Shown here: positions 1,402 through 54,892 of the stretch, piece by piece
Layout: each line of letters opens with the position of its first letter
Position numbering within the stretch: position 1 is the stretch's first letter
IMG/VR virus record: IMGVR_UViG_3300025364_000002
Length of the DNA: 64,000 nucleotides
Strand: one strand, 5' to 3'
Source of the DNA: a virus
Taxonomy: Duplodnaviria; Heunggongvirae; Uroviricota; Caudoviricetes
Position numbers and translations under genes: made by a program
The notes under the pieces: model-generated
The model's input: only the letters and a program-made list of their open reading frames with translations
What the model was told of the DNA's origin: nothing
Databases searched by the model: none

Positions 1402-3309
1402 CTACACCGGATACTCTCGTATTTGAATAGATTTTGGCCACTCGACAGGATCATCACCTTTTTTACTGTTCAACTTCGACATGGTCAAGCCTGTCAATAT
1501 CGGCTTAGAACCGAGCTGTTTTACAAATACTTTAGTTGATGTACCATTGACGCATTTCACCACGTTGTCTGCCCAAATCCAATCAAAAGCTCGGGCTCCT
1601 GAACCGCTTTCCCCGCCCACAACAATCCAATCAAGGTCATTGACCCAAGGAGAAAAGTCAACGGGTGCTAAGGCTGGTTCGTAACTTGCCCAGCGTACTT
1701 TTGAAGTAGTTCTCAACAGAATTGGGATTCTTTTATCTGCTGTTGACTGGTCTTCACAAGACACTCCGAGCCAAACATTGTTCAGCGGCCACGTTTTGTC
1801 AACTTTATCAGTTTCTTTTCGACCGGTAAGCTTTCTAGCCTCATTGGCACAATATTCAGCTGGTGATGGGACTTGCAAGGCAACCCAATCAAACCAATCC
1901 TTTGCTCTTTCTGGTCTTTTTGTTAATACCTGAAAGGTATGCTTTTGTGCAGCTGCCATTACGCCAAAGACAGCAGCAATGTATTCATTAGCGACGCCAT
2001 GATGAAAGAGATCACTCATTGAATTAACGAACACCATTCTTGGCTTAGTCCAACGAATGGGGTCTGCAAGCTTGTCTGGTACAAGCATAATATTGCCATT
2101 CCACCTTGGACCCTTTTTGCCGACGGCAATTAACCCATGGTAAGGCTCTCCAGGCCCAGAAAACCTATGTGCGACCGTTTCCGCATAGCAATTATGCACA
2201 GCCATTCCTAATGCTATGAATGTACCAGAGGTGGTTTGTATATCTACCAAATTGCGTTTACCAATTCGTCTAATCCCATCAAATTTTATTGATTGTTTTG
2301 ATGGAAATCTTCGTCCATGAAAGTCAACCGTCTTTCTTTGTAATGCAGGTTGAATTGTAGATAAAAATTGAATTTTATCAGAAATGGTTCCCAGGAGTAT
2401 TTCACTTTTGTTTACTTGCGTAGAATATTGTTCATATTTGGATTTAAATCCCAAATCAGCAATTGCACGATGAGCAATGTTCAATAAATTGTTTTCTTTG
2501 GTCTGATTAAATCTTAGATTTTTGCCACTATAACATCCATCCATATCCAAAAAACCAGCAAGAAACCCAGCTTTCCAATTAAAGTCACTTTCTTCCCGTA
2601 TTATAATATTCCTAATTTTTAGGAGATTGTCCATAATCCGAGTTTCAATTTTCAACATGGGAAGGTTGGCTTCCCTGTAAAGAAATGCATCACCTCCATT
2701 AAAGGAGCGAATATTAATATTTTTACAGCCAAATTCGATCAATGCTTTTTTTAAGCGTTCAAGAATTGGTTTATCTGTTGCCAAAACTGCCACACGACAA
2801 TAAGATTGAAGAGTGCCATTTTTCCCAGAACCTTCAATTCTAATTGTGTCGTCGCCACCAACAACTCCAGCAATATATCCTGCCAAATAGGGTTTAGAAT
2901 TTATATCTGGCAACCACTTTGGAAACCCAATACTAGATATTTTTGTGTTTAAATTAATCTTTTCAGCTTTTCTCCAATATGGTCTATGTGGAGATAAAAA
3001 CAAATGGTCAACACTTGATACTATCGTATTAGAACCAAAATATAATTCTACCGCTTCTTTCCTGGTTTTCCAAGTTTTAACAACCGTAGCCTCTTCAAAA
3101 ACTCTATTTTGTCCAACTTTAGGATTGTCAGTAAAAGCAATAACTTTATCACCCTCTTTAATCTCGCCAATAGGCACCCAACTCATATCGGACATTAAAA
3201 CAGGCGTATCTGGGCCCAGGCAATTTTCGCAACCCTTGGAAACTCTAGAACAGCCTCTCAAAGGATTCCATGTGGCATCAGTCCACTGTATTCCGGTCTT
3301 GTTTCCCAT
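1402..3309 (-). CDS. DUF5131 / phage Gp37-Gp68 family protein (CX6CX2C motif) containing an intein
   Basis: WTDATWNPLRGCSRVSKGCEN|CYAE and MVFVNSMSDLFH, WLGVSCEDQ, WIVVGGESG motifs. Confidence 0.88.
   Translation of the reverse strand: MGNKTGIQWTDATWNPLRGCSRVSKGCENCLGPDTPVLMSDMSWVPIGEIKEGDKVIAFTDNPKVGQNRVFEEATVVKTWKTRKEAVELYFGSNTIVSSVDHLFLSPHRPYWRKAEKINLNTKISSIGFPKWLPDINSKPYLAGYIAGVVGGDDTIRIEGSGKNGTLQSYCRVAVLATDKPILERLKKALIEFGCKNINIRSFNGGDAFLYREANLPMLKIETRIMDNLLKIRNIIIREESDFNWKAGFLAGFLDMDGCYSGKNLRFNQTKENNLLNIAHRAIADLGFKSKYEQYSTQVNKSEILLGTISDKIQFLSTIQPALQRKTVDFHGRRFPSKQSIKFDGIRRIGKRNLVDIQTTSGTFIALGMAVHNCYAETVAHRFSGPGEPYHGLIAVGKKGPRWNGNIMLVPDKLADPIRWTKPRMVFVNSMSDLFHHGVANEYIAAVFGVMAAAQKHTFQVLTKRPERAKDWFDWVALQVPSPAEYCANEARKLTGRKETDKVDKTWPLNNVWLGVSCEDQSTADKRIPILLRTTSKVRWASYEPALAPVDFSPWVNDLDWIVVGGESGSGARAFDWIWADNVVKCVNGTSTKVFVKQLGSKPILTGLTMSKLNSKKGDDPVEWPKSIQIREYPV
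2191..3222 (-). mobile_element. intein with LAGLIDADG homing endonuclease (344 aa)
   Basis: Starts CLGPDTPV, ends AVHN before Cys+1; YLAGYIAGVVGGD and FLAGFLDMDG motifs. Confidence 0.92.
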
Positions 3310-8584: not shown

Positions 8585-8665
8585 ACAAAGAACTCGGATT
8601 CGAACCGAGAATACCTTTACAGGCGGCGCAAGTTGCGAAGTGTATACCATTTCCACCATTCTTTG
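8585..8665 (-). ncRNA. tRNA-Leu-like RNA with collapsed anticodon loop
   Basis: Leu-type D arm, long variable arm, perfect acceptor and T arms, anticodon arm CGCA-ACT-TGCG. Confidence 0.7.
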
Positions 8666-17439: not shown

Positions 17440-17515
17440 TAGGACGCCCAGGAATCGAACCTGGTGACGACACAGTTTATAAGACTGCCGGCTTGAACCA
17501 TCGGCCTCACGTCCT
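17440..17515 (-). tRNA. tRNA-Ile(TAT)
   Basis: Cloverleaf with loop CTTATAA, A73. Confidence 0.88.
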
Positions 17516-29711: not shown

Positions 29712-29726
29712 TGTGAATTTCCTTAG

Positions 29727-29798
29727 CATCCCCGGAGAGACTCGAACTCCCAACCACCTGGTTCGAAGCCAGGTGCTCTTCCTTTGAGCTACGGGGAC
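29727..29798 (-). tRNA. tRNA-Arg(TCG)
   Basis: Canonical, G-CTA end. Confidence 0.93.
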
Positions 29799-30381: not shown

Positions 30382-30814
30382 ACGTTTTTTCCATCATCAC
30401 TTTAATAGGCTGTTCCTCAGATATAACTTCATCCTTGGTGTGTCTAACAGTACCATCAGAAAGAATTATATACACAACACCTGGCTTTTTCCACATGTAC
30501 TTGATTGTTTCCCAGGTGCCAGAACCTTTTTGTAAAAGTTTGTCAGTTGGAGGCAATCCAATCAAAACATCAGAAACTTCTACCAAATACCGATTTCTAG
30601 CCATATGCCCTAAGTTGTATGGGGTTACGCCCGTAGAAGCTCCCAGGTCCGCCGCTAAAGCTCTAAACATTTTGTCGGCACCTTCGCCATCATTGTGAAT
30701 ACATAACAGCTTGTGGTTTTTTAGAAAATGAACAAGAAGCTCTTTGAGTTTTTCGATTTGAGCTTCTGTAAAACCTTCTCGTCTGCCAGTAAAACCTACC
30801 ACTAATCCTTCCAT
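30365..30814 (-). CDS. SLOG superfamily (DprA/YspA-like) protein
   Basis: VGFTGRREG, EGAD, MARNRYLV, GSGTWETIKY. Confidence 0.72.
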   Translation of the reverse strand: MEGLVVGFTGRREGFTEAQIEKLKELLVHFLKNHKLLCIHNDGEGADKMFRALAADLGASTGVTPYNLGHMARNRYLVEVSDVLIGLPPTDKLLQKGSGTWETIKYMWKKPGVVYIILSDGTVRHTKDEVISEEQPIKVMMEKTYEEKE

Positions 30815-30844
30815 TGGAACACCTTGCAACAAATAGTAATTTAG

Positions 30845-30969
30845 CGGTATCCACAGGAATCGAACCTGTCTTGTGAGTTGCCTCGTCAGGCACCGGTAGC
30901 GGTCCCACAATGTCTCCCAGCACGGCCGTAGCCATGAAAGCGCAATGTTAGCGCTTATTGACGAATACC
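30845..30969 (-). ncRNA. 125-nt tRNA-ended RNA with a multi-hairpin core
   Basis: Acceptor GGTATTC/GGATACC-G-CTA and canonical T arm; core has four hairpins and no D arm or anticodon. Confidence 0.8.
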
Positions 30970-30974
30970 ATATT

Positions 30975-31068
30975 TGGTAGGGCTAGAGGGGCTCGAACCC
31001 CCATCTCAGGTTTATCAGACCTTAAGCCGGTTATAAACCGGTTGCATTCACCATTATGCTATAGCCCC
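30975..31068 (-). tRNA. tRNA-Ile(TAT) with a second Ile(GAT)-like stem-loop as variable arm
   Basis: ACCGG-TTTATAA-CCGGC followed by AGGT-CTGATAA-ACCT; CCA encoded. Confidence 0.85.
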
Positions 31069-31072
31069 AAAT

Positions 31073-31220
31073 TTTGTCTGTAAAGGTACCGTTACCTTCA
31101 ATACCTACCCGCAATGGTAGGCCCCACGGGAACTTCCATCGCACGTATTATTCAAACCCAGCGTTTAGGCTGGTTGAATGAATAAACCCTTGAGTTCAGT
31201 CATTTTCGGTTACAGACAAA
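31073..31220 (-). ncRNA. structured ncRNA with 11-bp closing stem
   Basis: TTTGTCTGTAA/TTACAGACAAA enclosing at least four hairpins. Confidence 0.65.
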
Positions 31221-33875: not shown

Positions 33876-33898
33876 ATCATACCGTTCACAGGATTTAG

Positions 33899-33982
33899 CT
33901 CCTGGGGTAGGAATCGAACCCACATACACCTTTCGGATCACCGGTTAACAGCCGGCCGCTTAAACCATTCAGCCACCCAGGA
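33899..33982 (-). tRNA. tRNA-Asn(GTT) with long variable arm
   Basis: U1-A72, G73, loop CTGTTAA, variable hairpin with GAAA loop. Confidence 0.88.
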
Positions 33983-34365: not shown

Positions 34366-34373
34366 AAACTTAG

Positions 34374-34445
34374 CAGGGAGAGAAGGACTTCCACCTTCAA
34401 CTTCCGGCTCAATACGCCGGGCTTTTGTCGTTAAGCTATCTCCCT
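34374..34445 (-). tRNA. atypical tRNA, anticodon ATT
   Basis: All four stems pair perfectly; loop GTATTGA, T loop TGGAAGT, D loop lacks GG. Confidence 0.55.
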
Positions 34446-38660: not shown

Positions 38661-38841
38661 GATTGTAAATATTGTTTTGCTCTTTCTAAAATCTCCACAG
38701 AATCCCTGAAAAGACCTAATCCAGTATTACAACTACTGTAACGCTTGAAACTCCTGTTTGCAACTTTGACAAATCTTCGTTTCTTTTTTCTCTGTATCTC
38801 ATGGTGTTAACAGTTTATCATGAGATAAAAAGACTGTTTAG

Positions 38842-38914
38842 TTGGCCCACTGGGAATCGAACCCAGATCTCAGCTTTATCAGAGCTGCGTGCTAAACCGC
38901 TCTACTATGGGCCA
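38842..38914 (-). tRNA. tRNA-Ile(GAT)
   Basis: Loop CTGATAA. Confidence 0.9.
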
Positions 38915-40902: not shown

Positions 40903-40978
40903 ACAACAACAGTTGGATTCGAACCAACAACCTGGACTTTCATAGAGCCCCGCTCTACCATTGCAGCTATGTGTTGTA
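40903..40978 (-). tRNA. atypical tRNA, anticodon ATG
   Basis: Loop CTATGAA, good T arm, bulged acceptor. Confidence 0.55.
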
Positions 40979-42052: not shown

Positions 42053-42061
42053 ATTATTTAG

Positions 42062-42149
42062 TGGGCCCCTAGGGATTCGAACCCTAAATGGGGATTGGTT
42101 ACCCGCCTGGTTAAGAGCCAGGTGCCTTCAACCGTTCAGCCAGAGACCC
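42062..42149 (-). tRNA. tRNA-Lys(CTT) with long variable arm
   Basis: Loop CTCTTAA, variable hairpin GGG-TAACCAAT-CCC. Confidence 0.85.
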
Positions 42150-42156
42150 ATGTTAG

Positions 42157-42228
42157 CGGGGCAGGTTGGATTCGAACCAACACTTTCTAGCTTCAGCTAG
42201 ACGTGCTACCAATTAACACTACCGCCCC
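42157..42228 (-). tRNA. atypical tRNA with 6-nt anticodon loop (CTGAAG)
   Basis: All stems perfect, G73, loop one nt short. Confidence 0.6.
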
Positions 42229-52142: not shown

Positions 52143-53318
52143 TCACTTTACAAGTTTTGTAAACAGCTCAGTCTCACGTCGTTCAATTTCTTGTCCGATT
52201 TCTCGTCCCTTTAAACCCTGAGCCATCAACTCTTGTCCACTCACGGATGGTTCGTATTTAATAAATGCATCTACCAAATTCATGTCCGGCTCACCACTAA
52301 GTTGAGCAAATTCCTTCAAGTCCTCAGGAGAAAGTCGTGTCGGCTTCCACAATTTTTTCAAATGATAAGCATTCTCGGGAGAAAGGTTTTGAAAAAGATT
52401 AAGAAAAGCAATTTGCCTAGTTTCAACTACACTGTATTTTAAGTTGTTTAACTTTTGAGACAAAACTTTAGGATTGTTATCTCGTGTAAGAAGAGCAAGT
52501 TGCACTGGGATGTTCTTTGTTTCTTCATACCACGTGTTTAGCTTTAACCCAGGTAAAATCTTTTCCCATAAATTGAAAGAGTCATAAAGACGATGTAAGG
52601 CCCTGACGGATTGGGCACTCTTAATGCTTTTCAAGAATTCATCTCTGATTCTTTCAGGCGACACACCCTCTAAGGAATTATTTGCCCTAATGGCGTCTTC
52701 GGTCGGTTTATCAAGCCCAGCACCCATACGAGCTGCAAATCTAATAGCTCGCAAAATTCTCAGTCTGTCCTCATCAAATCTTTCTGAGGGATCTCCAACA
52801 GCTCTAACCACACCTTTTTCTAGATCTTCAAGACCGCCTACCAAGTCCACAACTTCTTGACTGTCGATGTCATAAAAAAGTGCGTTAATTGTAAGATCAC
52901 GACGTTTCACATCATTTTCAATAGTAGTAAACTCAACTGCATCGGGTCGTCGACCCACCAAAGACTTAAATTCTCGATATTCTTCTGGAAAAAGTTGTGC
53001 GGCTTTATTTTTCCAATTAGCCGACTCTGTCAACTTGTTTGTGGTTGTTGGGGTAAATGTGATAAAGATACCATCTGTAGGATCACCCTCCACGACACTG
53101 ATACTATCAGTGCTGTACTCATCGAAAATTTTATAGTGTTCATCCCACCAATCTTCTTCGGGTGTACCTGCTTCATATCGACATCCGAGTGTATGAGTTT
53201 CAATGAACCAGCCATTTACAATAACAGTATCACCACAAGTTCTTGCAGTCTTCAATTTAGCCAGAAGGTCATTTCCAGCCTTTTGAACGGTTGCAGGTAA
53301 ATCTTCATACTTGGTCAT
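52143..53318 (-). CDS. CCA-adding tRNA nucleotidyltransferase, C-terminal part (motifs B-E) with ~120-aa extra N-terminus
   Basis: GRRPD, DVKRRDLTINAL, GGLEDL, RFDEDRLRILRAIRF, VSPERIRDEF. Confidence 0.85.
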   Translation of the reverse strand: MTKYEDLPATVQKAGNDLLAKLKTARTCGDTVIVNGWFIETHTLGCRYEAGTPEEDWWDEHYKIFDEYSTDSISVVEGDPTDGIFITFTPTTTNKLTESANWKNKAAQLFPEEYREFKSLVGRRPDAVEFTTIENDVKRRDLTINALFYDIDSQEVVDLVGGLEDLEKGVVRAVGDPSERFDEDRLRILRAIRFAARMGAGLDKPTEDAIRANNSLEGVSPERIRDEFLKSIKSAQSVRALHRLYDSFNLWEKILPGLKLNTWYEETKNIPVQLALLTRDNNPKVLSQKLNNLKYSVVETRQIAFLNLFQNLSPENAYHLKKLWKPTRLSPEDLKEFAQLSGEPDMNLVDAFIKYEPSVSGQELMAQGLKGREIGQEIERRETELFTKLVK

Positions 53319-54039
53319 CAACATATCTCCACATAAAACCACCAGCTTGTTTCCTGTACTTTTTGTTTCTGGCAGCACAGCTAATGTTTCTAATTCCCAA
53401 GTCTTTTTGAGCTTTATCAACACTTTCCCAAATTTGGATCATTTCACCGTCTAAAGTCATTTGCATTACTTTTTTCTTGTTCCAAGCTGATTTTCCTCTA
53501 CGAGCTTTAGAAATCTTCTGCTTTTGTGCTTCTGTACAAGGTTTTCCAAGTCTTCTGGTGTTACCTATAAGTGACTTGGAAATATTTTTCTTGTGTACAG
53601 AAGTTAATTTTCGACCCTTATGCTGTCTAGCAACTTGTGCTATTTTTTGCTTCGCCTTCTCACTGTGCTTATAACCGTGAGATCCAACCTCTCCTCCAGA
53701 AGTGACATTTGTTAAATCACAACCTTTGTCTTTGAAATATTGAATCCAATACCGCTCTCGTTCTGTCAACAAACTTTCTTCACATTTTTCAATGGCAATT
53801 ATCCTCAGTTTGGAGAGCAATCCTTTTCTCTCCAATAATCGCAACCAATTATTCTTATGCGAGTTATTCTTGTTCCTTCGATGCTTATGCTTAGAGAGTC
53901 TAACGTTTAGCTTTGATACAGTTTTACCAACATATCTGACCTCATTAGTCATTGGGCATACGAGCGAGTAGACGCAGCCTTTTCTTCCAGTTTTCTGGCT
54001 GTTTTTCTTGGATGAATTTAACGAAACTTTCATAATCAT
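53305..54039 (-). mobile_element. GIY-YIG homing endonuclease (NUMOD3/NUMOD1) splitting the CCA enzyme gene
   Basis: GCVYSL...VRYVGKT, HSEKAKQKI, KQAGGFMWRY. Confidence 0.9.
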
Positions 54040-54892
54040 CTTTTAAATATGAATCTTCACGGAAAGTTGCTATTTCATATTCATTGCCCTCAGGGGTTAT
54101 AACATTGATAACACCAAATGCCTTCCCAACTTCCATTGTTTTGTACTCTGGGAATTTCCTGATTATTTCAAGAATGCGATTAGGATTAGCATCTGTGGCC
54201 ACATCATAATCCTTAGGTTCTTTACCCAGCAATGCATCCCGTACTGCTCCACCTACAACGTAAAGTTGATGTCCAGCTTTTGAAAAGATTTGTGATAATC
54301 TTTGAATGTCAGCAGGTATTTTCATATTAAAGGGCTTTCGCACTGATTCAACTAAGAAATTGAAATTTTCATTTAAAATTTCATCAATAAGCCATTTAAC
54401 GCTTTCGTTTTTAGCCTCAGTTTCTTGGTTGTCTTTTTTTGGCACCTGATCCAGTGGCGAAGGTTGCTTTTTCTGCAAATATTTTTTAAACTTGCGCTCC
54501 CGTTTTTTGCGAGGTACAGTGTAATGTTTTTTTAACAACTGATCAATGGTAGATTGGTACCAGCGCTTTGCCTGTCCAGCAAGTTTGTTGTCATCTACAA
54601 AATGATCAATATAAAGACGCACTCCGTGCGTATCACCGGATTGACGTGGGTCCATATCTGGATCCATTTTAAGCAAGCCTGACAACTGGTCGAGTTTCTT
54701 GGTTGGAGAGTATCCTCCCCTGACTGATGACACGGAAAACTTAGCAAGTTTAGTCAAATCATCATGAATTTCGGGAAAATTTTTCTTCATGTGATTAACG
54801 TAATCTTGCGATAGCTCCTCACGGTGTTCGAGCATGACTTCATCAAGCACTTCCTCAATCAAATATACAAGGTCTTTCTTTTTCATGGACAT
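53945..54892 (-). CDS. CCA-adding tRNA nucleotidyltransferase, N-terminal part (motif A) with ~170-aa N-terminal extension
   Basis: LYVVGGAVRDALLGKEPKDYDVATDA, EIATFRED. Confidence 0.88.
   Translation of the reverse strand: MSMKKKDLVYLIEEVLDEVMLEHREELSQDYVNHMKKNFPEIHDDLTKLAKFSVSSVRGGYSPTKKLDQLSGLLKMDPDMDPRQSGDTHGVRLYIDHFVDDNKLAGQAKRWYQSTIDQLLKKHYTVPRKKRERKFKKYLQKKQPSPLDQVPKKDNQETEAKNESVKWLIDEILNENFNFLVESVRKPFNMKIPADIQRLSQIFSKAGHQLYVVGGAVRDALLGKEPKDYDVATDANPNRILEIIRKFPEYKTMEVGKAFGVINVITPEGNEYEIATFREDSYLKDDYESFVKFIQEKQPENWKKRLRLLARMPND

Follow-up and report, generated by a model that had tools for sequence, protein, structure and literature searches.

A phage tRNA-Ile(UAU) gene with a second hairpin displaying GAU, and the family to which it belongs

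Why should a single tRNA carry two isoleucine anticodon triplets, UAU and GAU, on two separate hairpins? The question is raised by a gene on a 64,000-nt stretch of viral DNA (Caudoviricetes; IMG/VR record IMGVR_UViG_3300025364_000002), to which we refer in its entirety as the window. Reading AUA, alone among the codons, requires a special trick in bacteria, namely lysidine made by TilS. A plain UAU anticodon is poorly charged by isoleucyl-tRNA synthetase (IleRS) and is prone to reading AUG, which is the reason for the lysidine trick. A sequence-only reading of the locus had proposed that the gene is a recombination product of two Ile tRNAs, a conformational switch between two anticodons, or a tRNA with a built-in decoy loop.

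The two-arm gene and its surroundings

The gene was called by ARAGORN as tRNA-Ile(tat) of 94 nt, exactly at 30975-31068 on the minus strand. The Rfam tRNA model RF00005 agreed that this is a canonical tRNA: it matched 30978-31068 with 57.6 bits (gathering score 29), aligned all of model positions 1-71 and placed 20 nt in a variable-region insert. The acceptor stem comprises 7 bp, including G1.U72, and the D arm consists of a 4-bp stem (GCAU/AUGC) and an 8-nt loop. The next hairpin, arm 1 (ACCGG-UUUAUAA-CCGGC, 31026-31042, minus strand like all parts of the gene), is the presumed AUA-decoding arm; its anticodon UAU lies at 31033-31035, and its stem comprises four Watson-Crick pairs with an A27.C43 mismatch on top. 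ARAGORN, the sequence itself, the Rfam alignment and the relatives described below all delimit it in this way.

A UU linker (31024-31025) joins arm 1 to the second hairpin, arm 2 (A-AGGU-CUGAUAA-ACCU-G, 31007-31023), in which an A.G pair tops a 4-bp stem and GAU lies at 31014-31016, and which is evident from the sequence, the fold and covariation. Next come a variable loop of 4 nt (AGAU, 31003-31006), the T arm (GGGGG-UUCGAGC-CCCUC, 30986-31002, by sequence and Rfam) and, at the 3' end, A73 and an encoded CCA. Both hairpins appear in the minimum free energy fold (-34.4 kcal/mol, z = -2.45). The sequence-only reading, which saw a normal UAU arm followed by a hairpin AGGU-CUGAUAA-ACCU, is thus upheld by direct inspection and by the fold, and its description of acceptor, D arm, T arm and CCA as intact is upheld by direct inspection, ARAGORN and the end-to-end Rfam match.

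An assembly artefact had been considered as a trivial explanation, and was not borne out. A 74.6-kb contig from a hypersaline-lake metagenome run spans the entire window, the two-arm tRNA region included, at a depth of 19, and a 1104-nt contig from a different run of the hypersaline-lake series covers 30400-31082 without any difference, so that the independent run is identical over the whole tRNA gene. In the microbial-mat runs X6 and X7, relatives of the tRNA flanks were found at 95-99% identity, on short contigs that stop outside the tRNA. The sequence at 30975-31068 is a real tRNA gene, and it belongs to a large phage family of five-arm tRNAs.

The window is part of a large, AT-rich phage genome (40% GC) that encodes a T4-type large terminase, a class II aminoacyl-tRNA synthetase of the Asp/Lys/Asn type, an asparagine synthase and ORFs resembling CCA-adding enzymes. 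A search of IMG/VR for phage relatives by way of the terminase (TerL) returned only five fragments of about 3-9% estimated completeness that carry no tRNA array, and the pattern matches on them were noise. According to ARAGORN, the window has 52 tRNA genes, and almost all of them lie on the minus strand. AUA is not a neglected codon in the genes of the window: it occurs 11.3 times per 1000 codons, equal to AUC, and makes up 19% of the isoleucine codons. A second tRNA-Ile(UAU)-like gene of normal length lies at 17440-17515 (minus strand); it was found by ARAGORN and is irregular, its Rfam score of 28.0 bits falling just below the gathering score of 29. In the 173-nt spacer upstream of the two-arm tRNA, which we inspected for a translated AUA leader, nothing stood out. 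On its other side, a tRNA-like element of 125 nt (30845-30969, minus strand) begins 5 nt after the gene. This element has an acceptor-like helix and a T arm without a normal core, and the T-arm part matches the tmRNA model only weakly.

The window also encodes an ordinary tRNA-Ile(GAU) (38841-38914, minus strand, from ARAGORN and sequence), whose anticodon arm AGCU-CUGAUAA-AGCU is followed by G-AGAU. The loop of arm 2 had been described as identical to the anticodon loop of this tRNA, which we can confirm, and the variable loop AGAU after arm 2 is the same as well. Across positions 28-48, 18 of 20 nt are shared, and the differences amount to one compensatory pair swap (G30-C40 in arm 2, C30-G40 in the tRNA-Ile(GAU)). 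The heptamer CUGAUAA is not rare by itself, with 13 copies in the window against 10 expected. The non-random features are that it forms a hairpin loop in a UAU tRNA and that GAU is invariant throughout the family.

A phage family with a conserved second arm

The sequence-only reading had suggested searching phage sequences for further second arms containing CTGATAA. We scanned IMG/VR with a strict pattern (a UAU-type loop, then CUGAUAA, then a T loop) and obtained 9 places, 7 of which are two-arm tRNA-Ile(tat) genes of 89-94 nt. These seven have quite different bodies and covarying second stems. When the second loop was relaxed to C-N-GAU-N-A, IMG/VR yielded at least 120 matches, almost all of them true family members. 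Altogether, at least 140 distinct two-arm sequences were collected from viral contigs; they form 65 clusters at 85% identity, counts that overstate independence because the members share ancestry. The gene of the window is a singleton among these clusters, and it has every trait by which we recognize the family: UAU in a 7-nt loop of arm 1, a GAU hairpin of about 4 bp followed by a variable loop of 4-5 nt, A73, and a 7/5 architecture of acceptor and T stem.

Two cultured phages turned out to carry members in a BLAST search with one family type: Sinorhizobium phage Phosso, where the gene is annotated merely as tRNA-Ile(tat), and Synechococcus phage S-SRM01, where it is unannotated. The tRNA of the window had no BLAST match among cultured phages, nor had two other family types, and a search of plasmids with two family types gave no match either. 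The strict CUGAUAA pattern, which represents a minority loop form, had 48 matches in 185,579 bacterial and archaeal species genomes, none of them a two-arm tRNA. Some strict-pattern matches on bacterial MAG contigs (L214, L229, L250, L254, L258) are 3' halves of tRNA-Ile(GAU) that follow unrelated AT-rich sequence, with the look of attachment sites duplicated by integrated elements. A metagenome scan anchored on arm 1 of the window gene returned four unrelated non-tRNA matches and one family member with CUGAUAA in arm 2. A full-text search of the literature found no published description of the two-arm tRNA architecture.

The anatomy of the family is uniform in 114 members that could be parsed. 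The stem of arm 2 has 4 bp, with pairing in 102-114 of the 114 at each position; it is preceded by a linker of 0-5 nt and followed by a variable loop of 4 or 5 nt in all 114. The 7/5 architecture is likewise found in 114/114 and in the window, CCA is encoded in about 70%, and the largest family cluster has very small D loops. The second loop reads CAGAUUA in 85 members, CAGAUAA in 12, CUGAUAA in 10, CUGAUUA in 5 and CCGAUUA in 2, and forms such as UAGAUCG are also present in the family. The CUGAUAA of the window is therefore a minority form, and CAGAUUA is the commonest. Across the family, only G34, A35 and U36 are nearly fixed in this loop, while C and U alternate at position 32, A predominates at position 33, and positions 37 and 38 vary.

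The triplet itself was left free in three further scans. With the flanks UCU...AA, 93 matches included 5 two-arm tRNAs, all 5 with GAU. With the flanks CA...UA, GAU was present in 113/113 family members among the matches listed, and the 8 listed matches with other triplets were all non-tRNA noise; orthologs that do not conserve GAT, which the sequence-only reading had named as a possible objection, were thus not what this triplet-free scan found. A scan that required nothing between the first loop and the T loop gave 52 long UAU tRNAs among the first 80 matches listed, and in 51 of them GAU stands in the centre of a 7-nt second loop, the lone exception being GAC. At the loci that were new to this arm-2-unconstrained scan, 23 of 26 had GAU, with GAC, AAC and AGC as exceptions. 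The second loops of the long UAU tRNAs with other triplets read CUAACAA (L463, 4399-4487, minus strand), CUAGCAA (L472, 8974-9064, minus strand) and UGGACGA (L414, 7871-7962, plus strand). In the reverse approach, with the first loop left free, every class I-bodied two-arm tRNA that was found had UAU in arm 1, and C32/U32, U33, UAU and A37 were kept in arm 1 of relatives found without constraint there.

The earlier suspicion that GAU is unlikely to be a chance feature of a variable arm is therefore borne out, as the triplet is near-invariant (about 95% with nothing constrained in the second arm) across a diverse family. These comparisons indicate that GAU in the second loop is under selection. 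The stem points in the same direction: in 61 cluster representatives, 97.3% of the cells are paired and 69 double changes occur, and the covariation score of 0.99 compares with 0.21 in shuffles and at most 0.16 for slid partner columns, with 0 of 500 shuffles as high. Judged by this pattern, the 4-bp stem of arm 2 is under selection and the flanks of the loop are not. Two structural explanations of the loop were tried and rejected. A 33:37 pair closing a GAU triloop is ruled out by A/A, U/U and C/U combinations, and kissing of the two tRNA loops is ruled out because complementarity is absent from the main loop type.

Extra arms, which are common on class I tRNAs at other phage loci, look different on other long class I phage tRNAs. 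They end in a tetraloop in 22 of 28 hairpins, 16 of these being GNRA, and 7-nt loops are absent from them (tRNAs for Asn, Lys, Arg, Gln and others) with one ambiguous exception. Two tRNAs of the window carry extra variable-arm hairpins of their own, a tRNA-Asn(GUU) of 85 nt (33898-33982, minus strand), with a GAAA tetraloop, and a tRNA-Lys(CUU) of 89 nt (42061-42149, minus strand). A CUGAUAA loop on a 4-bp variable stem also occurs in ordinary class II tRNAs of other phages, namely a tRNA-Leu(CAA) (L113, 4380-4468, plus strand) and a tRNA-Ser(UGA) (L122, 5833-5920, minus strand).

With the family at hand, the idea of a recombination between two Ile tRNAs can be divided. As a local event it does not hold: the architecture is found in 65 clusters, and sequence comparison indicates that it is old and widespread and not a one-off recombinant. 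An ordinary tRNA-Ile(GAU) with a canonical loop shares the locus with the two-arm tRNA in about 40 cases and in the window, and the arm 2 stem is identical to that of its co-resident at 3.14 of 8 stem bases, compared with 2.77 for shuffled pairs. Ongoing gene conversion by the co-resident gene was considered on the same figures and is at most marginal. What stays plausible of the idea is an ancient origin through insertion of an anticodon arm.

What may read the second arm

Arm 1 (UAU) most likely reads AUA. For arm 2 we favor, with a probability of about 0.4 and from comparative sequence data, a non-decoding display of GAU that most plausibly serves as an identity signal for IleRS while arm 1 decodes AUA. 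Arm 1 would occupy the anticodon-arm position on the ribosome, and arm 2 would be a small hairpin that selection maintains for its display of the anticodon of the major tRNA-Ile, with the host IleRS as its likeliest partner. Charging would then proceed through arm 2 plus A73, and decoding through arm 1. We propose this route of charging because IleRS recognises G34 and A35 and charges plain UAU poorly. The E. coli enzyme has been reported to charge UAU tRNAs poorly, a property that is altered by a single change at Trp905, and the wobble base is read by the Zn-binding domain of IleRS (PMC3575796). In the complex of the S. aureus enzyme, A35 is the only base contacted specifically by the anticodon-binding domain, C32 and U33 being partly open to solvent (PMC11685878). 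A fixed GAU with free flanks, as in the arm 2 loop, would fit these contacts of a bacterial IleRS.

The normal L-shape places the anticodon-binding domain of IleRS away from the position of a variable arm, so the IleRS model needs a rearrangement of the junction. Both arms leave the five-way junction at the level of positions 26/44 and have the same length, so either might stack under its D stem. It is a shade more tentative that identity (GAU arm, synthetase) and decoding (UAU arm, ribosome) are split within one tRNA in such a way that the two arms exchange their coaxial position in the five-way junction.

The nucleotides known to matter to IleRS provide a further comparison. The bacterial identity set comprises A73, G34, A35, U36, t6A37, A38 and C29-G41, plus minor pairs, and C29-G41 is a determinant in E. 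coli (PMC9976931). A73 is present in 139/139 family members versus 59% of other phage tRNAs. C29-G41 is found in 90% of the arm 2 stems, compared with 24% of the arm 1 stems, 47% of ordinary phage tRNA-Ile(GAU) and 9% of other tRNAs. In the window, A73 and the arm 2 loop CUGAUAA together supply A73, G34, A35, U36, A37 and A38, and position 34 of arm 1 is U instead of G. Among the minor determinants, C4-G69 and U12-A23 are replaced in the window by G4-C69 and A12-U23; C29-G41 is present in arm 1 only, arm 2 having G29-C41 there.

Several observations speak against IleRS as the reader. Most members have U37 and hence lack t6A37, which has been reported as a strong determinant for bacterial-type IleRS (PMC9976931). 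The three exceptions to GAU and the lack of C29-G41 in arm 2 of the window weigh in the same direction, as does the existence of plain UAU tRNAs in phages. Normal-length tRNA-Ile(UAU) genes were seen in 9 distinct forms among the phage loci examined, in addition to the irregular copy in the window, and the extra arm is therefore not obligatory.

The alternatives differ mainly in what they let the GAU loop do. The conformational switch of the sequence-only reading and its close relative, a tRNA with two heads of which either enters the ribosomal A site so that AUA, AUC and AUU are read by one molecule, would make arm 2 a decoding arm. The window itself and about 10 relatives lend themselves to this idea with a perfect anticodon loop, CUGAUAA, followed by a canonical variable loop of 4-5 nt. 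However, by far most relatives carry A33 in arm 2, so that the U33 of a U-turn is missing, and U37 in place of A37 is frequent, flanks that a decoding anticodon loop would not be expected to tolerate, and the arm 2 stem has 4 bp, not 5. A separate tRNA-Ile(GAU) is usually present (about 40 loci and the window), so arm 2 is not needed for AUC/AUU. A switch between decoding anticodons is thus unlikely for the family, even though the loop of the window is canonical, and we consider the two-headed decoder the least probable of all readings. A built-in loop that does not decode, be it a decoy or a display, comes closest of the three mechanisms originally offered to the comparative data, with GAU fixed between A33/U37 flanks. 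As a decoy or shield, arm 2 would mimic the anticodon of tRNA-Ile(GAU) in order to bind, titrate or escape a host factor, for example a defence anticodon nuclease or toxin; arm 1 would decode, and charging would not depend on arm 2. Counteracting defences that target tRNAs is regarded as a role of phage tRNA arrays, a conserved GAU with free flanking bases would suit any protein that reads the triplet, and the arm appears specific to phage-borne genes, given that none of the 48 matches of the strict CUGAUAA pattern in species genomes is a two-arm tRNA. But we know of no nuclease specific for the GAU anticodon, and nothing obliges a decoy to reside in one particular tRNA, yet the arm is tied to UAU in every class I-bodied two-arm tRNA that the scan with a free first loop found. 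Since A73 and the enrichment of C29-G41 also point to a synthetase over a nuclease, we regard the decoy as unlikely.

Somewhat less likely again is a partner made of RNA, such as a host ileS T-box leader (through its specifier) or another mRNA element bearing AUC/AUU, or a role of arm 2 as a handle for folding or processing whose GAU is read by some other partner. If the triplet worked by simple base pairing, one would expect it to be exposed and strictly conserved between free neighbours. However, three base pairs give little affinity without the architecture of an anticodon loop, which A33 and U37 abolish; the hosts are diverse, those of the cultured phages including an alphaproteobacterium and a cyanobacterium; no partner sequence emerged; and loop-loop pairing inside the tRNA is not conserved across loop types. 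More improbable still, at a level little above that of the two-headed decoder, is a class II-like tRNA charged through its long extra arm by LeuRS or SerRS, which ignore the anticodon, so that AUA would partly be read as Leu or Ser. There is precedent for this in long-armed UAU tRNAs charged with Leu (PMC3333845) and in long-armed tRNAs with Ser identity, whose predominant anticodons include UAU (PMC7609411), and A73 is the discriminator of Leu too (PMC9976931). The bodies of the two-arm tRNAs argue otherwise, as they are of class I (see the D arm of the window gene and the very small D loops of the largest cluster) and 7/5 without exception in the parsed members, not 8/4 or 9/3. G73 of tRNA-Ser is found in no member, and the idea offers no reason for an invariant GAU.

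Known systems and implications

The preferred reading, in which IleRS reads arm 2 and the ribosome arm 1, can be set beside systems that solve parts of the same problem. Mycoplasma mobile has a TilS-independent tRNA-Ile2(UAU) and a solution on the side of the enzyme, Arg865 in IleRS (Taniguchi et al. 2013, PMC3575796). In systems of this type, IleRS is adapted at the residue that reads the wobble base, with Arg or Lys replacing E. coli Trp905 (PMC3575796). Like this tRNA, the phage tRNAs are of bacterial type, would read AUA through UAU and not through lysidine, have A73 and face the problem that IleRS accepts U34 poorly. Unlike the M. mobile tRNA, which is a four-arm cloverleaf of normal length, they have the extra GAU hairpin and a non-standard length.

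Class II tRNAs (Leu, Ser, Tyr) share with the family an extra helix between anticodon arm and T arm, and tRNA finders accordingly model arm 2 as a variable arm. This is the sole class II feature of the window gene. Its D arm is of class I (a 4-bp stem and an 8-nt loop, versus 3 bp and an enlarged loop), it has A73 and the anticodon UAU, not one for Leu, Ser or Tyr, and arm 2 does not end in the short loop of a class II variable arm but in a 7-nt loop with a conserved triplet, after which 4-5 unpaired nt follow as in a normal variable loop. The nematode nev-tRNA-Ile(UAU) (Hamashima et al. 2012, PMC3333845) and the bacterial allo-tRNA(UAU) (PMC7609411) resemble the family in combining a long arm with UAU. 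They accept Leu or Ser and have bodies of the matching type, whereas the two-arm tRNAs are of class I, always have A73 and display GAU. Allo-tRNAs are further marked by an 8/4 or 9/3 architecture and Ser identity (Mukai et al. 2017, reviewed in PMC7609411), in contrast to the 7/5 of the window gene and 114/114 relatives.

A parallel to the proposed display is found outside tRNA decoding. The operator hairpins of E. coli thrS are mimics of the anticodon arm that are bound by the synthetase. Other synthetase-bound anticodon mimics are those in yeast mRNAs bound by aminoacyl-tRNA synthetases (PMC6542539) and a tRNA-like element of HIV-1 bound by LysRS (PMC5113203). The shared principle would be a hairpin with the cognate anticodon that is read by the anticodon-binding domain of the synthetase and has no decoding role. 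Those mimics reside in mRNAs or viral genomes, where they regulate or recruit; the phage mimic would instead sit inside a tRNA and serve its own aminoacylation.

A widespread phage tRNA with UAU and a conserved GAU hairpin suggests a third solution to the AUA problem, one that is built into the tRNA. If this is true, phages bring along a decoder for AUA that depends on neither lysidine synthesis nor an adapted IleRS. Confirmation would make it the first natural tRNA in which identity and decoding elements for the same anticodon position lie on different arms, and such a tRNA could be a template for engineered orthogonal tRNAs in which charging is uncoupled from the codon that is read. The mechanism is directly testable, because members of the family exist in cultured phages with tractable hosts. 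Annotation pipelines label such genes simply as tRNA-Ile(tat) or miss them, as happened with the copy of S-SRM01.

The tRNA array of the window shows further peculiarities. The 3' ends of its 52 tRNAs fall into two classes, N73-CCA-A (at least 15) and N73-C-U-A-A, in which CUA replaces CCA (at least 17); examples are found at 1265-1337, 29726-29798 and 38841-38914. The same phage that has this CUA-ending class also encodes the ORFs resembling CCA-adding enzymes. A34 anticodons were called by ARAGORN for Ser(ACU), Asn(AUU) and His(AUG), together with one tRNA that has an irregular, unassigned anticodon loop (8585-8665, 34373-34445, 40905-40977 and 42156-42228, all on the minus strand). The PolyA_pol head domain of the CCA-adding enzyme is split across two ORFs with another ORF between them (52143-53423, 53305-54039 and 53945-54892, all on the minus strand), and a DUF5131 protein (1402-3309, minus strand) contains a LAGLIDADG-like insert. 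It is possible that both the split PolyA_pol and the insert in DUF5131 represent inteins or homing endonucleases.
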